DNA of 64,000 bases from Eledone cirrhosa. Lineage: Eukaryota. The position numbers and the translations under genes are program-made. Below the pieces are notes generated by a model. It ran no database searches. It saw only the letters and a list, made by a program, of their open reading frames with translations, and was not told where the DNA came from. This document shows, piece by piece, positions 12,901 through 63,870 of this stretch (positions within the stretch are counted from its first letter, which is position 1; every line of letters starts with the position of its first letter). The stretch lies in NCBI GenBank assembly GCA_964016885.1, contig OZ024743.1, forward strand, positions 182,032,001 to 182,096,000, given 5' to 3'.

Positions 12901-13425
12901 AGAAGAGTGTAAACAACTTTCCTGGTGTTTTCTTTTGAATGAAACAGTTCTAGTCTAGTATATAAGTTTTCTGGGGTTGGTAAAGGTGGTGATTGAGGGA
13001 CGGGGGAGTACAGGTCATTGGCCAATGGATTTTAAAGAACAGTTGGCTTTCCTGATGATTTATTTTGAATGAAATAGTTCTAGTCCTGTAGAAGCTATTT
13101 CTATATTAAACTTGATATTTACATTCTACTAATGTATTGAGTACCTTATTGAACTGTGGTTACCCCGATTGAACCCGACAAGAGAGAGAGAGAGATGGAG
13201 GGGGTGGGGAGAGAAAGAGAGAGAGACAGAGAGAAAAGGAGACAGAGAGATATAACGGAATATTAGACTTCATAGTTTTTGCTACATGACTGCTCTTTCT
13301 CACGGACATCTACTGCAACTAACCACGTGGTTATCTTTCTCTCTCCTTTACCAAATACTGCACAGTTTGACATTTACATTTCACTATATCCGGTACCTAG
13401 ACTGTCAAACAGATTTCCGTCGGTC

Positions 13426-23293: not shown

Positions 23294-26200
23294 AAAGACA
23301 GTCAACGCGATCAGTCGCATATTTTGGCGTGGGAGACTATTTATTAAATTTAAGATGAATACTATCTCCGACAGTAATGCCACAACTACAGTCAGGTTGA
23401 ATAACTGGTTATTCTTCTAACTATCCCTTCTGAAGACACCTTTTATTCGAATTCGTAGAGATATCCGACTAAATACATAATTCATTTTACAAGGATTTGC
23501 TACAAACAGCATGGCTGAACACAACATCAACAAAAAAATTTAGGAAGTATCGAAGACAAATAACAAAGAAGGTAATCAAACTTTATTCCGTTGTAGCTAC
23601 AGAAGAAACCGAAATTATAAATCGCATTTGTCTTGGAGTTGCGAACTTAATAATGATTTATTTAATTGTTATAAAATGGCAAAAAAACAATCCCTCCATT
23701 GGATTGGCTATATGAATAGAATGAAGCTACACTGGGACAAAATGCACCCAGAGCTAAATTATTTCACAGCGAAACAATTACGCCAACAAGCGACGTTTGT
23801 TGAACGTAAAAATAAGATAAATATTATTAATTGTAAGTCCCCCACAACAAACATGTTATCAACAACACGTGCTACAGGTCGCCATGCTACTAGACTTTCT
23901 AGCAGCCAGGTCGAACAGCGCCTTGAAACAACTATGCCTGTAAGAAACTTGACACCACCTGTACCATCTAAGTCTACCTCGAATGCTGGAGAAAACACTA
24001 TCGATAATAATAATAATCGAAGAAATAATAATAATAATCGAATAAATGTGACACCACGTGTACCATCCGAGTCTACCTCGACTGTTGTGAAAAATACTAT
24101 CGATAATGATAATCAAAAGTATAAATAATTGAAAATTTCCCTCAACGAAATTTTCCAGAGAGAAATTAACTCATGTATAAATATCTCTCTTGCTGAACGT
24201 GTTAAAACGACAATGGTGAATAAAAAACCAAATAATGAAATACTACGTGTTATTGACGAAATAGGGGATGAATATTTACGACGGATAAAAACCCCAACAT
24301 TTTGGCAAATCAACGCCTGTTTATATGCCTTAGCAATGACAGTGAAGCATTATCTTGGTGATAGCAGAGATATTAACAAGAACAAAACACCACCAAAAAT
24401 ACCATCATATATAACTAAAATAGAAAAAAAGAGTGCTGACCTACGAAAAAACATAGGATATGTGACAATGCTCCTTACATGCAAACAAGCACAAAAAAAC
24501 CTCACTCCTCACCAACAAAGAGTGAAAAATAAAATAGAGACGTGATAGGAAAACTCCAAGATAAGAAAACACCAGGAAGAGACATGATTGTCGGCTACTG
24601 GTACAAACAACTAATATTCTATCGGAGGTATCTTACTGACCTCTACCAACAAGTTCTTAAGGGAGATACACTTATACCAGAATGGTTGACATTAGCACAA
24701 ACGTTACTGGTCCCCAAGAACAAAGACACCCACTTGGCAAAAAACTACCGACCCATTGCATGCCAGAACCTGATGTATAAGATGTATACAGCCTGCCTGA
24801 ACCTATTCCTCCAAGATCACAGTGAAAATAATAACATCATCACAGATGAACAAGCAGCTGGAAAGAAAGGGGTTTGGGGATGTGCTGAACAACTCCTAAT
24901 CAACAAAACTGCGATGTCGGAGGTGCGACAACTTAGGAGGAATATGACTACAGTTTGGCTGGACTACAGGAAAGCTTTCGATTCTGTTCCCCACTCTTGG
25001 ATGATAGAGGCCCTCCAACTTGCTAAAGTCCCAGACATTATTGTCAGAGCCATGGAGAGGCTGTCTTCTTCTTGGGCTACTATCCTAAGGTTAAAGACAG
25101 AGAGGGAAGACTCTATTTTCACTGATAAAATAAAATATTGCAGAGGTATATTTCAGGGGGACAGTCTCTCTGTGATATTGTTCATCTTGTCATTAAACCC
25201 CTTGTCCTTTCTGTTCAAGAAATGTGAGGGATACATCATTGGCTCACAGGAGGACAGAAATACGAACCTAACCCATAATTTCTTTGTGGACGATCTGAAA
25301 CTCTATGCCAAGAACATGGATGGGATGAAGAAAAATCTTGACCTGGTTACAACGTTCTCAAATATATAGGAATGGAGTTTGGCCAAGATAAATGCTCATA
25401 CATGACTGTAAAGCGGGGAAAAACAACAACCCAATCTAACAACATTGTCATCAATAGGCCTAACTGTTTCACCGATATCTGATGAAGACTGCTACAGATA
25501 CCTGGGGATAGATGAGAACATATCCTATAATGGTATCTGTAATAAAGAACGCGTAACTAGGGAATACTACACCCGATTAAGAAAGATCTGGTCATCGGAA
25601 CTCTCTGCGCAAAACAAAACAGTGGCTCACAATGTGTTTGCTGTGCCTGTCCTAACACCAACGATAGACGAAATCCGAGCAGTTGATGTTGGAACTCGAA
25701 AAATACTGAACAACACCCGAAACTTCCACATCAACAGTGACATAGACCGCCTTTACTTGAAACGTAAGCAGGGAGGCAGAGGCCTAACATCAGTCCAGAC
25801 AACATTTGAATGTCGCATCATATCTCTCCGACAACATCTACGAACCTCGAAGCGTAGGAGCCCGTTTCTCGAGCAAGTCTATCTGCATGAAACAGATAAG
25901 GTCATGAGAGTTGGGAAGGAATTCCTTGAGAGATATTCCCTGTGTGATAATCAAAAACTCACACCCAGGGATGTCGCTCAGCAGTATCGCAGTGAATCCA
26001 TGGATGAAAAACTGCATGCCTATCAGCAAAAAATCATGCATGGATATGTTGCCAGGAAGCTCCAGAGTGAGAGTAATATAGATAAGGAAAGTAGTCTATC
26101 TTGGACCAACAACCGCTATATTAGCTCTCACTTTGAAGGATACGCTTTTGCAATCCAGGAACAGGAGATTAGCACGAAATACCTGATTCACAAAAGAGAT

Positions 26201-27058
26201 AGGGATGCAGGCAAAACACCTAGATGTGATAACAAGTGCAGACTCTGCAGAACTAATATCGAGGATATCACCCATGTCATCAGCAGCTGTCCAAAGATGT
26301 CATCGCGCTACTATCTACCTATGAGGCATGATGTAGTGGCCAAAACACTGTACAATGCAGTTCGTAAAAAAGATAGCCCCGATAATAAACACATTAAAAG
26401 CTACAACAATGTGGAAGACATCCATGTATATAATATGAAAGAGTACTGGTGGAATGTTCCAGTAAAAACCCCAATAAAATGCAGGCATAACAGACCAGAT
26501 AGTATGATATGGGACAGAGAGAAGAAAACATGCACAGTAGTGGAAATTAGCTGCCCAGCAGATGCCAATATAATATCAAAGATTAGTGAAAAGGAGAATA
26601 TTTATGCAGAACTGATGAGAAATCTGCAGATACTCCACCCTGATTACACCTTCAGATTTATGCCTGTGATTATTGGGGCACTGGGATATGTTAGTAACTG
26701 CCTCAATACAAATCTTGAGAAGCTAGGCTTCACAGGAACAGAAAGAACACAACTAGTTAGGAAATTACAAGTACAATCCATTAATGGAACAGTAAAAATA
26801 TGAAAAACATTCCAAAAATTTTGCATCTAGTAACTGCATATACACATGTCCAGATACAAAGTATACACACATGCACACATACAACTCAAAACTTACACAT
26901 CCACACATACAATAACATCCATATCTACACATGCATGCATACATACATATCTACCTAGTTGATGTTGTGTAAATTCTAATGAGAAAGTCTTGTGTCTATG
27001 TTAGAAACCAACTCTCTCTCTATTGGTAAAACTTTGTGAAATTATAAAACCAGAAGAA
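23294..27058 (+). mobile_element. R4/Dong-clade non-LTR retrotransposon (RT + CCHC + restriction-like endonuclease), disrupted
   Basis: N-terminus GYMNRMKLHW..KQLRQQ; RT motifs NYRPIAC, LDYRKAFDSVPH, GIFQGDSLS, FVDDLKLY; CRLC..EDITHVISSC zinc knuckle, RHD, RPD..VEISCP. Frameshifts near 25367 and 25445 and an apparent deletion near 24542. (CATA)n on both sides. Confidence 0.92.
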
Positions 27059-27774: not shown

Positions 27775-28767
27775 GGTTTATGTGCATGAAAAAAAAATCA
27801 TTAGAATAGCGACTGATCTGGAGGAGAGATATGGAATAAAGCCTGATATAAATCTCTCACCCAGAGAAATCGGAAGATCCTATTCAATGTTCAAACAAGA
27901 TAAAAAAATTGACCAATTTACAGAAAAAGTTGTGCATGGATACTTGAGGCGTAAAACACAGACCATAGAGGGGATAAACCACTCAAAAAGCCTGGCATGG
28001 AGTTCCGACAAGTTTATGATATCACACCTTGAGGGATATCTCTATGCAATACAGGAACAAGAACTCCCTACCAAATATCTGCTGCACAAAAGAGGAGGGC
28101 CAGCAGCTGACAATAAATGTAGACTATGTAAAACAAAGATCGAGGATGTAAGCCACAGTGTTGCCAGCTGCGAAAAAATGTCATCTCGCTACTACCTCCC
28201 CATGAGACACGATAGGATAGCTAGAACCATCTGGAACGCACTTCGGAAAACAAAATTAACAAATGAGGAGGAATATATTGAGACAGATGGCACTAAGGAA
28301 TACTGGTGGAACCTGAAAATAAAAACTGCCACCAAATTAAAGCACAACCGGCCTGATATTGTTGTTTGGGACCACACATTGAAAACGTGTTCTGTTGTGG
28401 AGATCAGCTGCCCACTTGATGTAAACGTTGTCAGAAAAATACAGGAGAAGGAGGACATCTACGGACCATTGATGAGGAGTTTACAAATCCAGTATCCAAG
28501 ATACACCTTTAGCTTCATACCCATCATTATTGGAGCTACGGGTTATATACCAACCCGCTTGGACCAAAGTATGACTGAACTTGCATTTGCGGACAAAAAG
28601 CGCAGCTCCCTAATTCATAGTCTACAAATGGTTGCGATAGCTGGCACCTTCAAAATTTGCAAAACATTCTTGCGATTCAAGGGATGACAATTTCTTTTCT
28701 TTTACAACCTTGCCACCAGGAAGGTGGCCCTCAAAAAAAATATACTCGAAATTAAGAGAAAGAGATA
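27775..28767 (+). mobile_element. 5'-truncated R4/Dong-like LINE family 2 (RLE domain, 301-aa open frame)
   Basis: AIQEQ, CRLCKTKIEDVSHSVASC, RHD, HNRPDIVVWD..VEISCP; flanked by (CATA)n. Confidence 0.9.
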
Positions 28768-32204: not shown

Positions 32205-33547
32205 TCCCAACACCCGCCTTCCTTTCCCTCTCACCTACCACCCCATCACCCTACCTCTCCGGCGATATATTCTCCGTTCCTTCCGCACCCTCTCTTCTGA
32301 CCCCGTCACTTCTCGCTTTTTTCCTAACCCACCTAACCCACGCTTTTAAGTGCGCCCGTAACCTCTGCGACCGCCTGGTACGCAGTTCCTTCTCGTCTTC
32401 TCCTACGACTCCACCCGGCTCTCATCCTTGTTCTCGTCCCCGCTGTAACACTTGTGCTTTCATTTCCAGCCTCACCACTCTCACAGGTCCTAACGGGTCA
32501 TTCCGTATCAGCCACTCCTTCATCTGCACCTCCACCGACGTAGCCTATGCCCTCCGGTGTTCCCTTTGCGGGTCCTTATAAATCGGACAAACGGGATGCC
32601 GTTTGGCGGACCGTTTTGCTGAACATTTGAAGGACATACGACTCGGTATGGATACTCCCGTCGCCCATCAATTCCGTTCCCCAGGTCACTCTTCCCTACA
32701 TGTCTCAGTCCGGGGTGTCCTTTTACATCACGGATTGCAGGCCTCGCGCACCAGGACTGAACAGAATCTGATTTACCGCCTTGTGCCCTGTTTCCATAAT
32801 GGACTCAACTCCTCTCCCCAATTTCTTTAATATTTCACATACGTTCGTGCTTACTTCTCTACCCTTTACCCCGTCGCGTTTACTCCGTCCGTTATCACAC
32901 ACGCGCTTGTATATTCACCCCTAGATTCCTATGGCTCTCTTATGGTCAGAAACATATACTCTTACAGTTGATACAGACCAACAAAATACTCACACAGACC
33001 TCTACTTTTCCCTTCACAGCTCTGTATACACACAGAAAAACTCCCTTATATTAACATACTTTTGCTCACAGCTTCGTACTTACAAGCGTACACACACTCT
33101 TTTACTTACATATACATACACATATTCCCTTAGCTTCGTACGGATGCATAATAACACACACACAGAGATACACACACACAAACACACACACACACGCGCG
33201 CATACGCACGCACACACATATAGCTCTACATACAAAACGGTTTTTTTTTTCCATTTCAGGTAGACGCGCTCCATCATCTACTTTTCTAAAAACGGTATAT
33301 CATACACAAAACGCCAGCATCAACAGTTTTCAAAGAGATATCAACATGAATAGACCTGTTATTTTTATCTAAAAACATGTTTTCCGATTCTGCTCTGCCC
33401 GCTCCCTCTATCTTTCTAATTTCTCATTCTTTCTTCTGGTGAAGGACTAGCGTCCGAAACGTTAAGACTCTCTTCCTGCTATTTCGAGCGTTAGCCTAAT
33501 ATATTCCCTCCATGTACCGATTGTATTGTTATTTCTGTTTACCTTTT

Positions 33548-33747: not shown

Positions 33748-34067
33748 ATATACAATATATTAACAAATGGAAACTATATTTATAAAACCATATTTATTTC
33801 ATTATAAATATTTCAAGGGCCACCGAGGCAAATTATGGTGCGCTTTCATCAGATAAAATATAATATAGGTTAGTTTTATAAATAAATATTGACATACCCT
33901 GAAAAAATGCAACCATTCTGGTTGGAGTCTCCTGGATAAAACTAACCTATATTATATTTTATCTGATGAAAGCGCACCATAATTTGCCTTGGTGGCCCTT
34001 GAAATGTGTATAATGAAATAAATATGGTTTTATAAATATAGTTTCCATTTGTTAATATATTGTATAT
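33748..34067. repeat. Inverted repeat (132-bp arms, 56-bp spacer) with an HHR motif in each arm; PLE-type inverted pLTR
   Basis: Arms 33748-33879 and 33936-34067; CTGATGA at 33963 and GAAA at 34001. Confidence 0.8.
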
Positions 34068-34158: not shown

Positions 34159-34195
<37 letters not shown>

Positions 34196-34200
<5 letters not shown>

Positions 34201-34882
34201 TAACAGATTAAAGTTTAAGCAAAGAATCGCTGCTTTCACCCTTAACGGGATCTTCTGAAACTAAAAAAGTCAATCTGTGAACGCAGAAGTAAATATTTCA
34301 AAAAGCGTTGGAACCGAAGGAAGACAGGAAGACGATACTTTGGTTCGTGGAAACGTTCCCTGGCAAAGAACGGGGAAAAACGAAGATAATACGTCATTAT
34401 TTGGATCGGTGAAAACAATTACATGCAAAGACAAAACCGCGTTTATGGTATAAATGAAGTCGTAGACTAATATTCTATTAGGTGGTTCATGGAGACGTTC
34501 TCTGGCAATGAACGGAAAAAAAAGAAAATAATACGTCATAATGTGGAGCAATGAGAACAATTACACGCAAAGACAAAACCACGTGAATGGTATAACTGAA
34601 GTCGTAGACTAAAATTTTATTTAGGAAACCGAATGATTCTCGGCTTCAGAGTTAAGAATAAAGTAAATAAAATACAGAGGTAATTGAAATTAAATATATA
34701 CATACACACATCCATATACGTACATACACAAGCATACGCGAAAACACGCCCCATGGGTATGCAAATACAAGCACGTACACAAAATAAAAAAATAAAAAAA
34801 CTCACGCATATACAGAACCCACGCAACGCCTGTACCGTGCACATACGAACGTATACACCAAATACACATAAAAATAAATAAA

Positions 34883-34950
<68 letters not shown>

Positions 34951-34998
34951 CATAATTAAATAAACGTATATAAATATACACACATAAATACGTATATA

Positions 34999-35032
<34 letters not shown>

Positions 35033-35786
35033 CCACATGTAAATACATATATGTTCGCGGACGTACGTCAACCAAAACACAAAGTACACATATACACACA
35101 CCCTACATACGTACGAACCCGCATACTCACACAGACGCAAAACTCACGTATACACATAACCAAATGCACATGTACCAGTATATATAATATGTACGCCAAT
35201 AACATATACAAGCAAATATACGTACGAGAAATATACGTACCTTCACAAAACATACAGGTAATATATACTTACTTATACGAATACGTAATGGTATTAACAT
35301 AACATATATTTAGCTACCACATCAAGACATAAAATATCCGCGTATAGTTCGTACTATCCGTTAGGGTATAATGAATGTGGGGCTGTAATACAAGAAAGTT
35401 TTGTGCAATTTATGTTTACAAGCCGAAATTGCCTCAGATTTTTTGTTTAAGATGTGGTCTTTGGCGTAGAGTATTTCCAGGGCCTCGGCGGCGCAGAGGT
35501 CACATGGTCTTTTATTTCCGTTATACCATCTAGCCTTAGCTAGGATCTCCCAGTGTAACTTATATTCGGTGTGGTTGTCTTTTAGACTCCAGATATAAGC
35601 TGAAAGTGACGTCATATTCCTTCTTAAAGGGTTAAGAAAAGAATGGGTATGTATGTAAAGACGCTGCTTGAATCTATTGGCGGTTAACCCTATGAAGGCC
35701 CTACGGGACGTGGGTGTTTCAACCTTACATTTGTAGACAATGTTATCGAGCCCTCTTTGGATTTTAGTCTTCAAATTTATTATTAT

Positions 35787-41426: not shown

Positions 41427-43685
<2,259 letters not shown>

Positions 43686-44104: not shown

Positions 44105-46322
44105 AAGGAACCAAAAATAATCAACATATCGGCAAAAAAACTAACACAACAGGAAATAAAATTCCTAGAAAATGGACTGAAATTCACACCCACTCCAAAA
44201 GCAGATCAAGCCGACCTTATAAAAGACACAGAAGATTTTTGTTTAAAATTATGTCTATGAGAATTCTTCCAGGGTGTAGAATACGAGGAAGAATCACTAG
44301 TAAGAAACAAAAAGAACTTCAGGCCTCCGTTAAATAGAGACAAACACCTGGAGGACTACATAACCTACCTCCGACGATCGGCACAGTCAAATATTGCAGA
44401 GACGAAACACAAATACAACATCCCTACAGACCAACTGCAAGCACTAAACAAACTACAAAAAGACTCCTCAATAATCATAAAAGAAGCGGACAAAGGTGGA
44501 GCAATCATGATCATGGACAAAAACCACTACAAGGATATGGTCCTAGAACAGTTGAATTACGAGGATTTTTACAGAAAAATCAGCAAAAACGAAGAAAGAA
44601 AATCGATGATTAAAGTAGGCAAACTGACGACCAAGTACCAAAACAACCTCACACTAAAGGAAATCAATTACTTAACCAACTTCGAAATGAAAACCAGCAA
44701 TTTCTATGGTTTACCGAGGGTTCACAAATCCAGAGAAATCCAAAACAACATAAAAGGCAAAAATACATCATATGTTGAAGTGCCAAAACCGACAGATTTA
44801 AAATTACGCCCAATTGTTGCTGGTCTAGCCTCAAGCACACAACGTCTAAGCAACCTATTAGACATCGTACTGAAACCCTTATGTAAAAAAAGTGCCAAGC
44901 TTCGTCAGAGATGATATGGAATTCCTGAACTATATCCCCAGAAAGTACACCAAGAAACAATCTTAGTGAACTTTGACGCAACAAGCTTATATACTAACAT
45001 CCCACACGACTTAGGAGTTGAAGCTGTTGACTTCTGGATTACAAAACACCCAGACTACATTTTAAAGAGATTCCCCAAAAAATTTATTTTGGAAGGACTC
45101 AAACTAGTACTGGAGAACAACCACTTCCTTTTTTATAACGAACTATATTTACAAATAAAAGGAACACCCATGGGCACCAAAGTGGCCCCAACATATGCAA
45201 CACTCGTTATGAGCCACCTGGAGGCAAAATTACATTCCAAACTGCAGGAAACATTCAGTCATGACTTCGCTACCTAAATTAATCACAACTGGAAACGCTA
45301 CCTAGACGACTGCTTTATCTTCTGGAATAGAAGCCAAGAAGACCTGCAAAGATTCCATTCCATCATAAACAATCTTCACGAAGAAATAAAATTCACATGG
45401 AATGTAATAAAAAGGAACTACCGTTTCTGGATATCTTTATCATTAAGGAAGGGGAAAATATCAAAACGGACTTATTTTACAAACCAACAGACACACACCA
45501 ATACTTGAATTTCCGTTCAGCACACCCATCACATACCAAAAGGAACATTCCTTTTAACATGGCAAGACGCATCTGCACCATAGTAACACACCCCACACTA
45601 CAGGAAAAAAGATTATATGAACTAAAAGAGTTCCTTAAAAGACAAGAATATCCGGTGAACCTCATCAACACAGCCATCTCCAAAGCCCAGAACATCCCAG
45701 TGACAACACTGAGAAAAACAAAGCAACAAAATTGAATGGAAAAAACAGTCATCCCTTTTGTCACCACTCACAATCCAAGGAACTTCAACATTGTAAAAGC
45801 CGCCAAACAATATCTCCCGATTCTCCAGCAGTCCCCTAAAATGAATGCACTCATAAAAGACGCACAAATTATATATAGTAGACGCCAACCTAAAGAAACT
45901 GCTTACCAAGGCAAAATTTACGTCTAATAATAAAGCAATGCAAGTTAAGAAATGCGGGGACCCTCGATGCGAAACTTGCGAACACATTGAAGAGGGTGGA
46001 CAAATCTTCTTTAAAAACAACCAGTCTTTCGCAGTTAATGCAAACATGAATTGCAAAACAAAAAAACTTGATTTACTGTGCAACCTGCCCTCAATGTAAA
46101 GAATACTGCATTGGTGAAACCGGAACGGGTCTACATGACAGAGTTCGAGTACATAAACAACTAATTAGAGACCCCTCTATCAGAAACACCACATGCAGTG
46201 AAAGGGAAATTTCACAATTTTCCCCTTCTTTAAGATATGGTCGGACAACGAACATTTCCGAAAATATAAAGAAGAATTCTTTATTAGAAAATACAAACCA
46301 CTACAGAACACAAAAAAAGTGA
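44105..46322 (+). pseudogene. Near full-length degenerate PLE ORF (Neptune-like RT + GIY-YIG)
   Basis: GLKFTPTP, KEADKGG, FYGLPRVHK, LRPIV, FDATSLYTNIP, GTPMGTKVAPTYA, RYLDD, LPFLD, CGDPRCETC, IYCATCPQC..CIGETG; several stops and frameshifts. Confidence 0.9.
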
Positions 46323-49138: not shown

Positions 49139-49383
49139 TATTACCCACTCTACTACCCAAAGTATCGAGTAGTCTAGTGCGTTATGGTCCACCTGGTTCC
49201 TTACCACACTTCCTTCGTTATATATATATATATATAAGGATTAGAATACTGGAGCGTGTTTGAGTCAAACACCCTCTTCGTATTATAGAAATGACAGTAA
49301 AAGGTATAGCTCAATGCAGTTAAACAGAGCCAAAAAATTAAGAGAGTAAAACAAAGAATCCTTTAATACATCAAAAGTTTTTA

Positions 49384-49427
49384 TTAGCCGACAATGTTTC
49401 GTCCTATTAAGGACTCATCAGGGCAAT
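49384..49427 (-). ncRNA. Canonical minimal type I hammerhead ribozyme
   Basis: gcc-CTGATGA-gtcct-taat-aggac-GAAA-cattg-tc/ggc; GUC cleavage triplet, all core nucleotides intact. Confidence 0.88.
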
Positions 49428-53868: not shown

Positions 53869-54292
53869 TACCTCATTTTACTAGTCTCAAGAACGCGTCT
53901 ACACGACGTGAGAAAGAATCCCAAAAGGCGGAGGGGGAGATAGTCACGCGATATAACGGTCGAGAAACAGAGCTAAGCCTCTTATAACCACGAAGAAAAT
54001 ACCACGGAGGCGGAGGGGGTATTCATATCGAGGCCGCAGAAGAGGTAGTGAAGAAGGCGAGAAGTATGAGTAATGGAAGCTTTCCAGTTGTCCCCACACT
54101 TCAAAGATTGCTCGACCAGAGGGAGTTATTAATATATTTAGAAACACACAGATACATGCGGACACACACATATATACATGAATGCATCCGCACCCAACTG
54201 TGAGTTAAGGGTGCCAACTTCACCGATGTTGCTCAATGAATGACTGGGACAGACCAATTCAGTTTGAACTAGACTATATATATATATATATA

Positions 54293-54588
54293 TATAATCA
54301 CGAAACAACTTTCAGATATCCAAACAAAAAACATACCACCCAGCTTGCAAACCACGTATGGGGCCTTATGAATAACGGCAAGTCCTTTTCCATCAAATGG
54401 CGTATTTTGGAAAGATCTACCGCTTACGTAAATGGATCAAAATTTTGTCGACTTTGTATTTCCGAAAAAGGGTGAATACTCTCACAATTAGCTTCAGATA
54501 AGCACTGCCTCGACACACGGCTCGATTGCTTTGTCGGTTGTCCCCATGTGAAGAAATATATTTTGGATAAATGGTTTAGGCCTGACTA
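54293..54588 (+). mobile_element. GIY-YIG C-terminal fragment of another PLE (same broad clade as 60642)
   Basis: YNHETTF..TQLANHVW.L..IKWRIL..AY..SKFCRLCISEK..C.H. Confidence 0.8.
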
Positions 54589-55648: not shown

Positions 55649-55952
55649 TTCCATTGTGTTCCGACCTGGTATATATGTATATATTTATTTACCACACCTC
55701 ATTGACTGTCTGCTCATGTGTATGAAGATCCCGTAATAGGCTGAAAGCAGAAAGGCTATTACTTATTAATAGCAATCACTGTATTTAGTGTGACGTTCAT
55801 AGTGACGTAACGACATTTCAAACTGAAATTAGAAAGAGAAGGGAAGGAACGGGAGAAGAAAGCCAATTCTTGTCGATTATATCACAACTCTTCATTCCAT
55901 CGGACGTGCCAGCCTATATAGACGTTAACTTTTTTTTTCACGGTGAAAATAT

Positions 55953-59899: not shown

Positions 59900-59941
<42 letters not shown>

Positions 59942-60075
59942 TAACAGATTGAAGTTTAAGCAAAGAATCGCTGCTTTCACCCTTAGCGTCCGAAACGTTA
60001 AGACCCTCTTCTGCTATATCAAGCGTTAACCTAATATATACTGTACCGATTGTGTTGTTATTTCTGTTTACCTTT

Positions 60076-60156
<81 letters not shown>

Positions 60157-60641
60157 TTTATTAAAATAACAGATTAAAGTTTAAGCAAAGAATCGCTGCT
60201 TTCACCCTTAACGGGATCTTCTGAAACTAACAAAGTCAATCTGTAAACGCAGAACTGGATATTTCAAAAAACGTTGCAACCGGAGGAAGACAGGAAGACG
60301 ATACTTTGGTTCGTGGTAACGTTCGCTGGCAAAGAACGGGAAAAAACGAATAATACGTCATTAATAGGAGCGGTGAAAAACAATTACGTGCAAAGACAGA
60401 ACCACGTTTATGGTATAAAGGAGGTCGTAGACTAATCTTCTCTTAGGTGGTGGATAGAGACGTTCTCTGGCAATGAACGAAAAAAAGGAAGATAATAAGT
60501 CATATGTGGAGCGTGGAGAACAATAGCACGCAAAGACAAAACCACGTAAATGGTATAGCAGAAGTCGTAAACTAAAATTCTAACTAGGAGACCAAATGAA
60601 TCTCCGCTACCGGTTGAGCACTCTACTGACTTATATTCATC

Positions 60642-62771: not shown

Positions 62772-63667
62772 CACGATCTATACGTGGATATTTTACGTCT
62801 TGATGTGGGAGCTAAGTATATGTTTTGTTTATTCCTTTACTTATTTGCATAGGTAAGTATATATTACCCGTATGTTTTGTGAAGGTAAGTATACCTTCTC
62901 GTACGTATATTTGACTGTTATGGCGTATAATTTTTACATATTCTGGTATTTAGGGTTTGGCTATGTGTATACGGGAGTTTTGCGTCTGCGTGAGTATGCA
63001 GGTTCGTACGTATGGTGGGTGTGTGTATATGTGTACTTCTTGTTTTAGTTGACTTACGTCTCCGAACATTCGTGTATTTATATGTAGGTATGTGTGTGCG
63101 CTTGTTATATACGTATTTATTTACTTATATACGTTTATATAATTATTTATTTATTTGTACACAAGCATACATACACACACATATTTATATGTGCGTGGTT
63201 TTGTATACCTTAGTAAGGTTTTGCGTATGCTTGTGTATCTACGTATCTGTTTGCGTGTATGTATTTATATGTTTCTATTACTTCTGTATTGTATTTATTT
63301 ACTTTGTTCTTAACTCTGTAGCGGAGATTCATTTGGTCTCCTAGTTAGAATTTTAGTCTACGACTTCTGCTATACCATTTACGTGGTTTTGTCTTTGCGT
63401 GCTATTGTTCTCCACGCTCCACATATGACTTATTATCTTCGTTTTTTCGTTCATTGCCAGAGAACGTCTCTATGCACCACCTAAGAGAACATTAGTCTAC
63501 GACCTCCTTTATACCATAAACGTGGTTCTGTCTTTGCACCGCTCCTATTAATGACGTATTATTCGTTTTTTCCCGTTCTTTGCCAGCGAACGTTACCACT
63601 AACCAAAGTATCGTCTTCCTGTCTTCCTCCGGTTGCAACGTTTTTTGAAATATCCACTTCTGCGTTT

Positions 63668-63743
63668 ACAGATTGACTTTGTTAGTTTCAGAAGATCCCG
63701 TTAAGGGTGAAAGCAGCGATTCTTTGCTTAAACTTTAATCTGT
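63668..63743 (+). ncRNA. Extended type I hammerhead variant (core CAGAAGA)
   Basis: Stem I acagattga[ctttgtt]agttt / aaact-ttaatctgt; CAGAAGA; t-ccc-gttaa-ggg-t; GAAA; stem III agca/tgct; CUU site. The same motif occurs at 60169-60244 (-) and 34203-34278 (-). Confidence 0.7.
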
Positions 63744-63870
63744 TATTTTAATAAATATTTGCTCTACGGTTCTTATATATTTGATATATATTTTCCTTAT
63801 CGAGCCCTCTTTGGATTTTAGTCTTCAATTTTATTATTATTACTATATATATAATATATATATATATATG

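Follow-up and report, generated by a model that had tools for sequence, protein, structure and literature searches.

A Hydra-clade Penelope-like element and its terminal motif

Toward the end of the window (the whole 64,000-nt stretch of the Eledone cirrhosa genome analyzed here) lies a retroelement with an uninterrupted 709-aa ORF and, downstream of it, a 76-nt motif shaped like a type I hammerhead ribozyme (Table 1). The element unit is ~3.2 kb. Among 30 loci located by matches to the ORF start, intact tandems have the motif, tail, 5′ UTR, and ATG in that order, with ~150 nt between the predicted cut site and the ATG. The ORF start has 357 exact matches in the genome; a Pfam search of the 709-aa ORF matched no family, and among its 488 homologues the best 120 are 38–56% identical. 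One locus encoding a protein 40% identical to it (L115) has the hammerhead catalogued for Penelope-1_NV.

By its motifs, rather than by a tree of reverse transcriptase (RT) sequences, the element is a Hydra-clade Penelope-like element (PLE). As in the published Hydra-clade elements (Craig et al. 2021, PMC8557442), a single ORF codes for the RT and then a C-terminal GIY-YIG endonuclease, with the DKT motif, a CxCX5C linker, CxxC, and CxH, although RWR replaces the RWK of the published elements. Also shared are insertion at (TA)n targets, partial tandems, an inverted truncated copy upstream, a tail, and a hammerhead in the terminal repeat; the canonical form of that hammerhead, itself a trait of the clade, is absent, as the core has an A at position 4 (A4). 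A Nematis label for the element was dropped in favor of Hydra, whose published motifs match (PMC8557442), and a non-LTR retrozyme, with short noncoding tandem units and no ORF, is excluded, since the motif is part of a 3.2-kb ORF-bearing unit.

Table 1. Features of the motif, its element, and neighboring retroelement pieces in the window
Feature	Coordinates	Strand	Remarks
Type I hammerhead-shaped motif, subfamily A copy	63668..63743	+	From sequence, scans, and folding
Stem I	Outer 63668-76/63735-43 (9 bp); inner 63684-88/63730-34 (5 bp)	+	
Stem I bulge	63677-83	+	7 nt, U-rich
Core strand C3-A4-G5-A6-A7-G8-A9	63689..63695	+	A4 = 63690
Stem-loop II	63696..63708	+	U10.1-U11.1 mismatch, 3 G-C pairs, 5-nt loop, last letter A
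G12-A13-A14-A15.1, stem III, U16.1, U17	63709..63729	+	
Initiator-like hexamer	63682..63687	+	Likely capped transcription start at A63684; 1,451 copies begin here behind an extra G
ORF, 709 aa	60642..62771	+	Uninterrupted; RT + GIY-YIG; Hydra-clade motifs RWR, DKT, CxCX5C, CxxC, CxH
3′ UTR	62772..63667	+	Internal ~125-140 nt direct repeat (63347-63467 / 63486-63593)
Tail / start of next unit's 5′ UTR	63744..63846	+	Copies end near 63758 or 63846, abutting (TA)n
5′ UTR remnant	60611..60641	+	
Inverted 5′-truncated terminal repeat	60154..60610	-	Holds second motif copy
Second motif copy	60169-60244	-	C3 at 60223
5′-truncated subfamily B copy	34188..35745	-	Endonuclease end + 3′ UTR, third motif copy
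Third motif copy, subfamily B	34203-34278	-	C3 at 34257
Fourth motif copy, partial	59929..59988	-	Motif 3′ half only; fused to antisense end of another hammerhead-bearing family
RT + GIY-YIG ORF piece	42280-43482	-	
Broken RT element	44261-46164	+	
Hydra-like endonuclease fragment	54290-54547	+	30% to main ORF
LINE-like pieces	24533-26803; 27776-28687	+; -	

The three helices can be drawn around the core with stem I open, and with all of their pairs, including a stem I of 5 bp, a 7-nt bulge, and 9 bp; a long stem I with a 7-nt bulge had been described in the original prediction. Stem II, of 3 bp, is closed by a U10.1-U11.1 mismatch (63696/63708), stem III has 4 bp (G-C, C-G, A-U, and G-U, with G15.2-C16.2 first) under a 7-nt nonpalindromic loop, and the predicted scissile bond is 63729/63730, after the triplet CUU. 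G12-A13-A14, the A15.1-U16.1 pair, and H17 are present and unchanged between subfamilies, and six of the seven letters of C3-U4-G5-A6-N7-G8-A9 match, position 4 alone departing. In its predicted architecture the motif is a hammerhead, but its core is not the canonical one. Standard searches miss it, as had been foreseen: CUGANGA descriptors fail, and the Rfam hammerhead models have no match at E ≤ 10 on 63600–63800; a canonical U-U motif of the same window scores only 14.5 of 52 bits. A U at 1.7 and an A ending loop II, which we take to be the letters of the usual tertiary contact between stem I and loop II, are both present, with the bulge variable in sequence and length between subfamilies and covariation absent. 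At 63677–63691, both the U-rich bulge with the AG after it and the CAG that A4 creates resemble 3′ splice sites; no spliced copy was recognized.

All three complete copies in the window have the CAGAAGA core, as originally described from the sequence and as our scans also find; the minus-strand copies are real, but 60169 and 34203, given as their positions, mark the lower-numbered end of each 76-nt copy and not the core. Stem III had been called stable and the architecture fully extended. The 4 bp and the drawable pairs stand, but stability was overstated: secondary-structure prediction puts the hammerhead fold 2.1 kcal/mol above the minimum free energy, with the three-helix junction in ~1% of the predicted ensemble for the extended form, and full extension is likely confined to read-through RNA, as transcription probably begins downstream of the bulge and outer stem. 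For RNA starting at 63684, the junction is predicted at <0.1% (secondary structure only). An alternative pairing, with A4 joining both core strands, has a predicted probability of 0.33 at 37°C. The idea that A4 cures misfolding met with mixed predictions: A4 favors the junction by 1.4–1.5 kcal/mol in four of seven copies, is within 0.3 kcal/mol in two, and is worse by 0.4 kcal/mol in one.

A4 as the consensus of a large family

Genome counts were taken from pattern matches to the motif. With position 4 left free there are 20,612 exact matches, and none for a reversed-pattern control; A occupies the position in 20,389 (99%) and another letter in 223, of which the first 100 comprise 36 G, 36 T, and 28 C, a spread such as decay would give. 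The claim that A4 is not random decay is therefore borne out, chance is excluded as well, and so is the possibility raised with the claim, that the family consensus is CUGAAGA. The contigs of four sequencing runs show no change above 3% at 63690; one near-identical contig from each of two other organisms was set aside, and none of the runs listed is an RNA run. A hidden U4 subfamily was also sought with a looser pattern, but among its 1,128 CUGA matches none of the 30 seen is a U4 lineage; 26 are fold-back junctions and four are truncations onto flank. Fold-back junctions centered on core position 4 recur (for example, L156–L185) and form mirror-image mini-elements with a fake CUGAAGA core.

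Among 78 metagenomic loci of relatives, 51 gave a hammerhead hit, 44 of them distinct; the other 27 are often cut short, and several have a canonical core by eye. All 44 distinct hammerheads have U4, C15.2-G16.2, and one of the triplets GUA, GUC, or GUU, and none has A4, G15.2-C16.2, or CUU; 22 have the U-U closure. The Hydra rows in File S2 of Craig et al. (PMC8557442) are similar, with CUGANGA in 26/26 and U-U in 14/26, and differ from the Eledone family in having C15.2-G16.2, GUH, and a 1–3 nt loop III where ours has A4, G15.2-C16.2, CUU, and a 7-nt loop III. U4-to-A is fixed across three subfamilies of this Hydra-clade family, and A4 is the derived state, because U4 is found in 44/44 of the relatives' hammerheads and in 26/26 Hydra rows. 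What sets the A4 family apart is A4 itself together with the swapped 15.2-16.2 pair, the CUU triplet, and the long loop III, and the U-U closure is ordinary for the clade; it is present as first noted, but is not new, being common and published in the clade (22/44 and 14/26), and U10.1-U11.1 was reported earlier as tolerated (Perreault et al. 2011, PMC3088659). Other U-U families in the same genome give 866 matches, with nearly all of the first 100 being CUGA.

A search of the supplement text of Craig et al. (PMC8557442) did not find the motif of this family, and Hydra-1_Obim has a different, canonical hammerhead; no natural U4A was found in the literature searched, the likeliest source (Lunse et al. 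2017) lying outside that search. The core variants in the text of Perreault et al. (PMC3088659) are rare single loci that include no U4A, whereas A4 here is the consensus of a 20,000-copy family. On these comparisons, the family-wide A4 form is a real new variant of the Hydra-clade hammerhead. A low-copy family in the same genome (L219, L223, L224, L227, and L246) resembles the A4 family in stem-loop II, mostly keeps the canonical U4, and is a candidate outgroup for dating A4. Some relatives have other core changes, including a U3-A8 covariant, CUGACAA, and a more degenerate core (L062:1938 and the 3′ UTRs of L084 and L092).

Subfamily assignments were made for 109 of the 222 copies collected: 49 belong to A, 30 to B, and 30 to C, with median divergences from their own consensus of 1.2%, 4.1%, and 6.0%, respectively. 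The copy at 34203 is diverged, as had been claimed, at 86% identity over 560 nt, and belongs to the older subfamily B; in one subfamily C copy (L283) the flanking RT and endonuclease pieces are 60–79% identical to the window ORF. Stem and core positions are identical in the three subfamilies. Between A and C, 0/57 of them changed, compared with 5/18 loop and bulge positions (Fisher p = 0.0005) and 17/118 flank positions (p = 0.002); the core alone, at 0/15 versus 17/118 in the flank, is not significant (p = 0.22), and covariation is absent, since no stem position changed. Between A and B, the downstream flank also has 0/94 changes. The A and B copies were mostly fetched with patterns containing the core, but the pattern recurs in 27 subfamily C copies retrieved by tail sequence only; 16 of these extend to position 4, and 12 of the 16 have A there. 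The hammerhead fold is probably under selection, because stems and core are unchanged while loops and flanks have changed; constraint at the DNA level could add to this conservation, as the region overlaps the likely promoter.

Likely transcription start and possible activity of the A4 fold

Many copies are truncated immediately 5′ of the core. The base immediately 5′ of A63684 is T in 17,262 copies, G in 1,451, and A or C in 1,155; the neighboring positions have 780 and 930 non-consensus letters, with G in 20 and 19 of the first 100 listed. Of the G-copies, 30 were inspected, and every one is a junction to varied DNA upstream; 29 of them continue past the cut site. Among 20 A/C copies inspected, 14 are junctions. 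The hexamer at 63682–63687 is one that we liken to the initiator consensus; a similar hexamer precedes the hammerhead in 12 of 44 relatives, versus 5 of 41 control windows. A capped transcription start at 63684, inside stem I, is likely, as we infer from the extra-G pile-up, the initiator-like site, the precedent of L1, whose full-length insertions carry an additional G as a trace of the cap (PMC11702581), and the internal promoter of Drosophila Penelope (PMC2377424). Splicing of a common exon was rejected as the source of the extra G, since the upstream DNA of 30 copies shares the G alone.

No R2-like boundary or pile-up of copies was found at the predicted cut site, either in 39,443 tail copies or in the ORF-start loci; 795 of the 39,443 lack T there, and 9 of 30 seen are junctions, or about 0.6%. 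A canonical U4 family in the same genome also has no pile-up at its cut site (11/475), so such an absence is no measure of activity. Of 13 ORF-bearing copies crossing the upstream cut site, none starts at 63684 and 11 extend further upstream, and long copies would thus need read-through RNA, a circle, or strand transfer.

We propose, at about an even chance, that the motif is an attenuated ribozyme of a Hydra-clade PLE that cuts slowly, perhaps only with the element's protein. RNA would start at A63684 inside stem I, and the capped 5′ copy, keeping only the 5-bp inner stem and being without the bulge and outer stem, would stay uncut; RT primed in the tail could then copy the uncut RNA back to the cap, a step proposed by analogy with internal initiation in the lizard element (PMC11167929). 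Only the downstream copy in read-through RNA would have the outer stem and bulge and so fold into the extended form; slow cutting there, after CUU, could shorten the RNA at its 3′ end. Trimming would leave no genomic mark if, as we infer, short cDNA transfers to the downstream copy. Weak cutting would spare the template and may have helped the lineage expand. Activity is probably low, because a full mutational (pairwise) scan found low activity for all single CUGA-turn mutants, with no single or second-site rescue except a C3-G8 swap (PMC9901934). Among natural hammerheads, single core changes can retain low activity, and a natural U4C has lowered activity in vitro and works in vivo (PMC3088659).

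Two known systems are informative here. The Anolis Poseidon element PAc (Frangieh et al. 2024, PMC11167929) also has two internal RT start sites yielding a tail, and its insertion substrate is uncut RNA; its hammerhead mutants still insert, and cutting needs protein. It differs in having a canonical core, in that protein-assisted cutting has been shown, and in the position of the hammerhead, which overlaps the start codon in PAc and lies ~150 nt before the ATG in the Eledone element. The minimal metazoan PLE hammerheads (Cervera and de la Pena 2014, PMC4209133) are likewise type I, located in the terminal repeat, and expected to be of low activity, but unlike the A4 family they have no stem III, have G10.1-C11.1, and act as dimers; their family-wide core variant, U3-A8, is compensatory, whereas U4A is not.

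A serious possibility, although one we place somewhat short of even, is that U4A abolished cutting, leaving a catalytically dead fold whose helices are a binding or priming handle for protein and whose letters are partly core-promoter DNA. The three joint departures seen in none of the 44 relatives, the ~1% junction and the 0.33 probability of the rival A4 pairing, the independence of insertion from cutting in vitro (PMC11167929), and the lack of significance for the core by itself (p = 0.22) all agree with loss of cutting; against it, all 15 core positions and the terminal A of loop II are kept over three subfamilies, as is outer stem I, which can form solely in the read-through copy. Cutting at a useful rate, switched by the transcription start so that it is off in the capped 5′ copy with its short stem I and on where the outer stem and bulge form in the 3′ copy of read-through RNA, the element's protein perhaps assisting, is possible but doubtful. 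The original prediction, an active monomeric variant, is unproven, as CUGA mutants are weak (PMC9901934) and CUU and the swapped 15.2-16.2 pair are seen in 0/44 relatives; an efficient monomer, with contacts between the bulge and loop II compensating for A4, is improbable. The monomer-type 4-bp stem III, U1.7 and the terminal A of loop II, the helices conserved between subfamilies, and the suggestion of Perreault et al. (PMC3088659) that tertiary contacts offset core changes, together with tolerance of U-U, are in its favor, but CUGA mutants are rescued only by the C3-G8 swap (PMC9901934), the bulge varies in sequence and length, U1.7 is present in just 6 of 20 relatives with a short stem II, and predicted folding is weak.

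Whether PLEs need their hammerhead is an open question: Craig et al. suggest that it may be a parasite (PMC8557442), and in vitro, according to Frangieh et al., it is not needed (PMC11167929). A young family (median 1.2% from consensus) that expanded to tens of thousands of copies while fixed for a different letter at an almost invariant core position offers a natural experiment. Should A4 RNA cut, both the core consensus and the descriptors used in searches are too narrow; should it fail to, the fold serves some other function. Cutting switched by the transcription start, if true, would broaden the consensus of the core, bring to light families that CUGANGA searches overlook, and account for elements that retain a cap while forming their 3′ end with a ribozyme.

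Other hammerheads in the window

Two further claims of the original prediction did not survive. A second PLE family with A at position 4 had been reported, but when the window was scanned with one mismatch allowed, A4 appeared in the three copies alone; the minimal-hammerhead family at 33436 (+) and 58650 (-) has U4, and a CAGAAGA near 60010 (-), the likely source of the claim, is antisense of that family's flank. The related decayed motif placed near 55720 has ~27 nt in common with an older subfamily; its 3′ half occurs nowhere else in the genome, position 4 is T, and we found no stem I for it.

The minimal hammerheads, with no stem III and with U4, lie at 33436 (+), 58650 (-), and 59980–60040 (+), and the two complete window copies each have a different core change. 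A canonical CUGAUGA hammerhead with U-U closure is present in two copies, 57995 and 58287 (+), 292 nt apart; its family, possibly retrozyme-like, numbers at least 475 copies, many of which form tandem or inverted pairs. Additional canonical-core candidates are at 33852 (-) and 33963 (+), at 13052 (+), and at 49383–49427 (-), the last scoring 31.7 of 34 bits with Rfam Hammerhead_1.
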